The position numbers and the translations under genes are program-made. DNA of 64,000 bases from a virus (Duplodnaviria > Heunggongvirae > Uroviricota > Caudoviricetes), in IMG/VR virus record IMGVR_UViG_3300037466_002980, positions 96,001 to 160,000 of that record, one strand, 5' to 3'. Shown piece by piece: positions 58,965 through 59,449 of the stretch. The first letter of the stretch is position 1. Each line of letters begins with the position of its first letter. Below the pieces are notes generated by a model. It had not been told where the DNA came from and did no database searches. It saw only the letters and a program-made list of their open reading frames with translations.

Positions 58965-59449
58965 AAGGATACCTCGCTAATCGGACATTTAGCTTCATCT
59001 AGATTCCAACGGTTTCACATTCCAAATCTCGAAATGCTAATTGCCAACCTAATCTAGTTAATTATTGAACATTTTCCCGGTATCGGCAGGGTGCCCCTAT
59101 AAGAAAAGAATATTAACCATACCTCTCATCTATCAACCAGGATATCAAGGATATAATATATTCTACCGGCTGGCACCTTTCTGTTCTGGCCTTTCTCTTC
59201 ATAAAAAATGCTACGGGAGGTAATGCCTTCGCTTTTATTATTTTACGGTAAAAATAGCCAACCACTCCAAACGGATGGAAAATAATAAATGTCTAGCCTT
59301 AAGCGAGGCTAAGTGCAGGAATTTCCAGTCCCTCTAGTCTTGCACCCTAGACTTTAAACGCCATCTCTTTAAGTCGAGCGTTAACTCCGACTACCGTTTC
59401 CCCGGCGAAGGATTGTGGCACCCTTAAGGTGTACCATTCCACAAGTTCA
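58965..59449 (-). ncRNA. Candidate large structured RNA region downstream of tRNA-Pro
   Basis: ~485 nt with no ORF in the track; many stems, two H-type pseudoknots. Confidence 0.5.

Follow-up and report, generated by a model that had tools for sequence, protein, structure and literature searches.

A conserved RNA gene built of several helices and read from one strand probably lies at the 3' end of the tRNA-Pro unit in this phage DNA. The window, by which we mean the whole stretch of 64,000 nt that was analysed, corresponds to bases 96001-160000 of a virus record of 362,810 bp with direct terminal repeats. Within it, the RNA begins 4 nt past the 3' end of tRNA-Pro. The initial annotation had proposed a structured non-coding RNA on the tRNA strand directly after tRNA-Pro, and covariation in a family of 11 members bears this out. 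It had also drawn two tandem H-type pseudoknots in the middle of the RNA; there, comparison with relatives makes it likely that the 5' domain folds as a chain of ordinary hairpins instead. The kind of RNA is familiar in general, and the family is new: it appears to form a non-Rfam family present as a single copy in uncultured phages whose genomes reach about 365 kb, an assignment that we consider probable.

In the source genome, ARAGORN predicts 45 genes for tRNAs as well as a two-piece tmRNA, nearly all of them on the minus strand. The site itself is a stretch of 490 nt with no convincing ORF, between tRNA-Pro and a gene for a gp82-like protein (PF25735), and its GC content is 49%, compared with 36% for the genome. 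A sigma-70-like promoter picked by eye before tRNA-Pro (TTGACG, 16 nt, TATAAA; 59566-59539) was given no weight, because the scan tool did not report it and it is not conserved in the relatives. Several other features of the tRNA-rich surroundings were recorded. A 97-nt Rfam tRNA match at 36168-36264 on the minus strand (55.8 bits) was not called by ARAGORN and may contain an intervening sequence. A tRNA with a CUA anticodon, of the amber suppressor type, occurs near the tRNA island in the window (61384-61460, minus strand) and in the relatives L031 (4646-4719), L113 (1418-1492) and L139. A sub-cutoff Rfam match to Dicty_Class_I_RNA (28-29 bits) recurs at syntenic positions in L132 (1797-1850), L137 (1704-1756) and L130 (3059-3112), which suggests a further conserved small hairpin RNA between tRNA-Val and tRNA-Pro. 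Farther away, a GC-richer block at 39500-42930 contains dozens of diverged direct repeats with a period of 60 nt (20 codons) and is probably the gene of a repetitive structural or fibre protein.

The neighbouring gp82-like protein, together with a protein of 269 aa, led to relatives in IMG/VR, JGI metagenomes, NCBI and Logan assemblies. When the sequence after tRNA-Pro was read directly in syntenic contigs, clear homologues of the first and last hairpins were found. MAFFT alignments of the element were rejected as structurally inconsistent, with strands off by 1-3 columns, and for this reason the covariance model was seeded from a single sequence. This first model, made from L137 alone with five hairpins read by hand, recovered the window element at full length (59290-59445, 27.2 bits, E 2.8e-6) together with six others. 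A second model, R2, was built from eight sequences including the window, which scores 73.8 bits as part of the training set; it found the unseen L250 (E 3e-11) and L134 (E 7e-10) and later L252 (87.8 bits). The family thus defined has 11 distinct members: the window, L031, L113, L114, L132, L134, L137, L139, L147, L250 and L252. The features of R2 are all present in the window, namely the HP1 outer stem UUGNGG/CCNCAA, the AUGGUA bulge, HP2, HP4 abutting HP5 and the CGCUUW loop, and all four R2 helices (HP1, HP2, HP4 and HP5) pair in its row of the alignment.

Three phage records, of which two are complete (363-365 kb), each carry a single copy of the element, and neither a repeat search of the window nor blastn within the genome gave a second copy. 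Blastn of the 2-kb region against 50,697 GenBank phage records matched only the tRNA-Pro part. Pattern scans of IMG/VR returned L002's contig as the sole match to the tRNA/HP1 junction, 14 chance matches to HP5 plus its tail, and at least 110 matches to HP1, of which three were real (L137, L139 and L147, the last identical to L187). By protein identity L002 is the closest syntenic relative, with a GC-rich segment in the corresponding place; it was left out of the family because its local alignment with the window is noise (top score 27.5, null 25.2 +/- 3.3) and the models do not recognise it (E>5). In L130/L131 the element is absent and only the downstream leader is found, so the element is dispensable there.

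Positions of the features discussed, in window coordinates except where a genome or contig is named
Feature	Position	Strand	Detail or basis
tRNA-Pro(UGG)	59450..59527	-	CCA encoded; ARAGORN; Rfam RF00005, 65.7 bits
Whole conserved RNA	59207..59445	-	239 nt in window, 210-241 nt in relatives
5' domain	59445-59290	-	covariance models (27.2 bits; 73.8 bits)
HP1	59413..59444	-	outer stem TTGTGG/CCACAA; 7-nt 5' bulge AAUGGUA, 59438-59432
HP1 inner stem CACC/GGTG	59431-59428 with 59422-59419	-	
HP2	59393..59406	-	GCCG/CGGT, loop GGGAAA
HP3a, AGTCG/CGACT	59372..59392	-	string present; insertion confined to window (gaps in 10 of 11 rows)
TCTAG/CTAGA	59333..59351	-	string present; alternative register AGTCT/AGACT
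HP4 as read in window	59313..59345	-	outer stem GTGCA/TGCAC, 8-nt bulge, loop CUGGAAA
HP4 inner stem GGGA/TTCC	59332-59329 with 59321-59318	-	
HP5	59293..59312	-	TTAGCCT/AGGCTAG, loop CGCUUA, 59305-59300
3' domain	59292-59207	-	three-way junction plus HP8
Three-way junction	59234..59289	-	MFE folds; 3'-domain model
Closing helix UUUAUUAUUUU / AAAAUAAUAAA	59289-59279 / 59244-59234	-	11 bp in window
HP8	59207..59228	-	loop CAUUACC, 59225-59219; tail GUAGCA, 59214-59209; U run
Element B	58957-59200	-	230-270-nt leader after the element; 13 relatives
Motif TTGTGG / CCACAA	59444-59439 / 59418-59413	-	string check
Motif AGTCG / CGACT	59392-59388 / 59376-59372	-	string check
Motif AACGCT / GGCGTT	59382-59377 / 59362-59357	-	string check; one G-U
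Motif TCTAG / CTAGA	59351-59347 / 59337-59333	-	string check
Motif GTGCA / TGCAC	59345-59341 / 59317-59313	-	string check
Motif TAGCCT / AGGCTA	59311-59306 / 59299-59294	-	string check
Two-piece tmRNA	genome 160426-160939, just past window end		ARAGORN
Junction slot	L114:3486-3718		
Junction slot	L132:3240-3424		
Junction slot	L137:3131-3231		
Junction slot	L250:1066-1500		
Junction slot	L134:1-324		

The 5' domain consists of five hairpins in the relatives and six in the window, the difference lying in its variable middle, which holds one hairpin in the relatives and two in the window. Across the 11 rows, 96.8% of the cells in paired columns were paired, a percentage inflated by the fitting of the pair-count alignments to the model structure, versus 28-42% when the partners were slid by 1-3 columns. 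Both sides had changed in 20 of the 26 pairs, with compensatory cells that are non-independent events because the 11 sequences are related, and none of 500 shuffles matched the observed values. The slid and shuffled controls answer the inflation in part. Despite these generous figures, the covariation effect in the alignments is large and is seen in every helix of the 5' domain. About 19 G-U cells would become A-C mismatches on the opposite strand, and their tolerance on the tRNA strand identifies that strand as the one carrying the RNA. Three unpaired features are conserved as well: the HP1 bulge (A)UGGUA, the linker AAUNCY and the HP5 loop CGCUUW.

Of the initial annotation, comparison with the relatives confirms the hairpins at the two ends only. 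Its first hairpin, TTGTGG/CCACAA, is HP1, with 100% of cells paired and compensatory changes across the 11 sequences. Pair 4 of the HP1 outer stem, UUGNGG/CCNCAA in the family, is A-U, G-C or U-A depending on the member; the inner stem has double-sided changes at all three modelled pairs, and the (A)UGGUA bulge is kept in most members. Its last hairpin, TAGCCT/AGGCTA, is HP5; 96.9% of its cells are paired, and each of its six pairs has double-sided changes in the alignment. Taken over its full length, HP5 is 97% paired, 6 of its 7 pairs show changes on both sides, and its loop reads CGCUUW in 10 of the 11 members.

Between these two hairpins, the columns of HP2 are 97.7% paired, and 3 of 4 pairs have changed on both sides. 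The covariance model pairs GCCG with the distal UGGC (59363-59360) as an alternative; for the window, we infer the local partner from its likeness to L147. The family columns of HP4 are 92% paired, with changes on both sides of 6 of 6 pairs. HP4 directly adjoins HP5, with zero spacer, in every member, and TGCAC does likewise in the window. Because GTGCA/TGCAC ends exactly where the family's HP4 ends, abutting HP5, it is most likely the outer stem of a two-tier HP4, although the alternative folds of the window differ in energy by less than 0.5 kcal/mol, and those at HP4 by no more than 0.3 kcal/mol. Thermodynamics alone would not give this fold, because the nested MFE structure of the window breaks HP1. 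The nested MFE of the region is unremarkable (z = -0.66), and the values for the 3' continuation and the L002 counterparts are likewise ordinary, all from -0.05 to -0.66.

In the variable middle, the initial annotation had placed two pseudoknots: PK1, formed by AGTCG/CGACT with the loop pairing AACGCT/GGCGTT, and PK2, formed by TCTAG/CTAGA with the loop pairing GTGCA/TGCAC. All twelve motifs that it named are found on the minus strand where it had placed them, the four helices of PK1 and PK2 are all present, and their loops have lengths that an H-type knot could sterically accommodate. To count compact H-type candidates, we required stems of at least 5 bp with at most one G-U, and a hairpin loop and a third loop of no more than 20 nt. 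The region has 7 such candidates versus 1.05-1.25 in dinucleotide shuffles (P 0.007-0.013), and no shuffle reached three non-overlapping candidates. However, at least two non-overlapping candidates were seen in 9% of shuffles, and the excess is mild and post hoc, given that the region was picked by eye from 64 kb (128 kb of strand). The excess is also absent from nine other sequences, comprising eight family members and L002.

The homologues give support to neither pseudoknot. Both stems of PK1 lie in columns with letters in the window only, within an insertion of about 30 nt unique to the window, where the support is complementarity alone. In the other members, the columns of TCTAG/CTAGA, the first stem of PK2, are paired in 20-36% of cells, about as often as in the slid control. 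With 5-6 bp each and duplex energies of -3.3 to -5.9 kcal/mol, the helices are weak, and every one of them competes with a nested pairing; for example, GGCG in the 3' strand of PK1 can pair with the nested CGCC (59407-59404) at the base of HP2. If GTGCA/TGCAC is HP4, TCTAG/CTAGA could form solely as a pseudoknot with HP4. A conserved HP4 pseudoknot was suggestive by eye in 5 of 10 members and was dropped, as pairing of the upstream strand with the HP4 loop across the ten members was not significant (Fisher p 0.40-0.70). The PK1 pairings and TCTAG/CTAGA are window-specific complementarities as judged from the aligned sequences. That the two pseudoknots nevertheless form in the middle of the RNA in this phage, as an elaboration specific to its lineage, seems to us improbable. 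We set the tandem pseudoknots aside.

The sequence past HP5 is also conserved, so that the RNA is longer than the extent first reported (59292-59449), which covers the 5' domain and stops short of an end at about 59207. In this 3' domain, the closing helix of a three-way junction encloses HP6 (59278-59262), a short HP7 and a conserved GUAAA (59246-59242). The same closing helix, made of different sequences, is present in the MFE folds of all ten 3' halves. A third covariance model, again seeded from L137 alone, recovered five relatives. In six relatives, 95.8% of cells in the 3' domain were paired, compared with 34-45% after sliding, and 18 of 26 pairs showed double-sided changes. The window element matches this model over its full length, yet weakly (59208-59289, 9 bits, E 0.032 in 301 nt). 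The stem of HP8, which is helix 5 of the model, covaries; in the family this region is a hairpin with a UUACC loop, followed by the tail CUAUAGCAC and a U run. The motif UUUACCNNCUAUAGCAC is nearly invariant and is kept in all members, followed by a U-rich run (59209-59228 in the window). In L250, the motif and its U-rich run directly precede a protein gene. The two together may mark the 3' end of the RNA or a phage promoter.

The 3' domain bears directly on whether the hairpins have a function of their own or belong to a mere tRNA 3' trailer with an intrinsic terminator. In every member the element follows the end of the gene upstream of it, a consensus scan flagged HP5 and its T-rich tail in the window (59312-59293) as terminator-like, and L130/L131 manages without the element, all of which a trailer would explain. 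Yet about 240 nt with eight compensated helices and the invariant AUGGUA, CGCUUW, GUAAA and UUACC exceed the needs of a terminator, and the T-rich tail after HP5 is missing from most relatives. In the window, that tail is itself one side of the helix that closes the 3' domain, rather than the single-stranded U tract that follows the GC-rich hairpin of a terminator. Because this tail pairs in a covarying helix, because its counterpart in most relatives is not U-rich, and because the HP5 loop is conserved, we conclude that HP5 is not an intrinsic terminator; a simple trailer is very unlikely.

A possible contact between the two domains is a lead that falls short of a result. The GGUA of the HP1 bulge is complementary to the UACC of the HP8 loop in all members. 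Bulge and loop have changed together in L250 (GGUUA/UAACC) and L134 (GGCGG/UUGCC), and swapping the partners among sequences gives P = 0.047.

Other readings of HP1 and of the element as a whole were considered and set aside. Frames that open at the AUG of the HP1 bulge, read from the sequences, run from 3 to 40 codons depending on the member; with lengths as variable as these the element is non-coding, and a small peptide from this AUG was rejected. A K-turn in the HP1 bulge was dropped, since the opposite strand offers no unpaired G-A. A Y-RNA for a nearby TROVE-like protein was dropped as well, since the element has no terminal stem joining its 5' and 3' ends.

In every member, only 0-8 nt separate the element from the end of an upstream gene, and the identity of that gene varies. 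In the window, L113 and L252 it is tRNA-Pro, whose CCA is separated from the element by 3-4 nt; direct adjacency to a tRNA is thus found in 3 of 11 members. In the others, the gene upstream is a small ORF, and the element begins right behind its stop codon; these ORFs encode a rotamase, a zinc-ribbon peptide or proteins of about 60 aa. Between tRNA-Pro and the element, L114, L132, L137, L147 and L250 have an ORF or about 100-435 nt; tRNA-Pro is absent within 1.6 kb in L031 and L139, and the L134 contig ends before that position. The tRNA-Pro/HP1 junction is a slot for small genes that differ among phages. A duplicated remnant of the tRNA 3' end (CCGACCA) precedes HP1 in L114 and L132, and a gene for a DUF559 endonuclease lies beside tRNA-Pro in L002 and L114.

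Such a junction, a hot spot with tRNA remnants and an endonuclease gene nearby, is what might be expected of a site acting at the DNA level, that is, a target of recombination or homing beside the tRNA gene in which the inverted repeats are bound by protein or extruded as a cruciform. The element does not behave in this way. Its G-U pairs are tolerated on one strand only, the stem sequences vary freely while pairing is kept, where protein sites would keep the sequence, and the insertions fall beside the element, with none inside it. We regard a DNA site as extremely unlikely.

Downstream of the RNA, a second element (element B) was observed. It was recognised by nhmmer in relatives with E values from 1e-11 to 1e-51, and in the window at E 0.005 only. 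Its long-range helices covary (20 of the 37 predicted pairs have changed on both sides), it has no Rfam match, and its end coincides with the start codon of the next ORF; judged by its conservation and position, it looks like a large cis-regulatory RNA. In the window, its leader motif, ending in ...AAUUUUUAUG, stops at 58956. That position is Met15 of the gp82-like gene and is probably its true start, rather than 58998; the database copy of the protein begins there and has 114 aa.

The proximity of element B raises the question of whether the two elements form a single cis-acting leader of about 490 nt, of which the present RNA would be the upstream part and which would control the ORF after element B. 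Element B lies within about 0-70 nt downstream in 10 of the 11 members, and its strong conservation, its covarying long-range helices and its end at the next start codon are what such a leader would require. Against this, an ORF of 202 codons separates the two elements in L250, about 170 nt with a putative open frame separates them in L252, and L130/L131 has element B without the upstream RNA. The ORF after element B also differs, being gp82-like in the window and a protein of 234-247 aa in relatives, and no pairing of the RNA with element B was found. We consider a common leader unlikely.

A broader proposal, to which we give little credence, is that the hairpin chain, the 3' domain and element B are modules of one large phage RNA system of about 490 nt in the tRNA island. 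A kissing contact between the HP1 bulge (GGUA) and the HP8 loop (UACC) would close the first RNA into a compact particle, and this RNA might work in trans, for instance by scaffolding a tRNA- or RNA-repair protein of these giant phages or by acting as its decoy. If this were true, GOLLD and ROOL would be joined by a new class of RNA, and a genuine conserved pseudoknot would exist, other than those drawn in the initial annotation.

For the RNA by itself, we would guess at a stable species that 3' processing of the tRNA sets free. The RNA would be transcribed together with the upstream gene, and in the window the nucleases responsible for maturing the 3' end of tRNA-Pro would release it. Both of its ends are predicted to be buried in helices, and for this reason the freed RNA would be stable, persisting as a compact molecule resistant to exonucleases. 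The U-rich stretch after HP5 forms one side of a helix rather than a terminator tail, and the invariant unpaired nucleotides may form a surface for a protein or RNA partner. This sketch of biogenesis and function, taken as a whole, is tentative.

The non-coding spacers in the tRNA islands of giant phages are mostly unexplored, and here one of them holds a defined, covarying RNA family. It offers a concrete candidate for a phage-encoded stable RNA derived from a tRNA precursor, and it yields a seed alignment and a model for a new RNA family, with element B as a second candidate. The analysis also shows that a few metagenomic relatives can be enough to tell real helices from pseudoknots picked by eye in GC-rich islands.

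The comparison with known RNAs began with Rfam. At gathering thresholds, the element matched no family, and cmscan of 58400-60400 at E<=10 gave only tRNA and four matches at chance level to unrelated families. The initial annotation had been unable to match the element to tmRNA, GOLLD or ROOL, and in agreement with this, cmscan against Rfam returned none of them. The pseudoknot domains of tmRNA resemble the element in being structured modules in series after a tRNA-like acceptor end. However, the element has no tag reading frame, a complete and ordinary tRNA-Pro lies upstream, and pseudoknots are unsupported; no tmRNA model (Rfam clan CL00001) was matched in the window at gathering thresholds or around the site at E<=10, and ARAGORN puts the tmRNA of this genome elsewhere. 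GOLLD (RF01998) and ROOL (RF03087) are multi-helix non-coding RNAs of phages and prophages that are often found beside tRNA genes, and the present RNA, with its several helices and its link to tRNA, resembles them loosely. In contrast, they measure about 580-800 nt and have conserved cores of their own, while the present RNA has about 240 nt (about 490 nt with element B). Neither family nor any other was matched by the element in the five homologous loci scanned at E<=1, and neither was matched at E<=10 in 58400-60400.

Closer parallels are found among small RNAs that arise with tRNAs. Phage T4 encodes RNAC and RNAD, the stable "species 1" and "species 2" RNAs, within its tRNA cluster. They have been described as "RNAs of yet unknown functions" (PMC9697503). 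Like them, the present RNA would be a small, stable phage RNA among tRNA genes; unlike it, RNAC and RNAD are shorter, and no sequence relation was seen by blastn. In E. coli, Lalaouna et al. in 2015 reportedly described 3'ETS-leuZ, the RNA of a 3' external transcribed spacer of a tRNA operon, as a sponge of small RNAs. 3'ETS-leuZ is a structured RNA that shares a precursor with its tRNA and is freed at 3' maturation. In the window, L113 and L252, the present RNA also lies on the same strand directly 3' of a tRNA, and it would likewise share the precursor and be released at maturation. They differ in that 3'ETS-leuZ has about 50 nt, ends in the operon terminator and pairs with RyhB and RybB through Hfq, whereas the present RNA has about 240 nt and eight helices and is adjacent to a tRNA in that minority of its members only. 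By analogy, the RNA would work most like a 3'ETS-type RNA or like T4 RNAC and RNAD, although it is probably a member of neither group.
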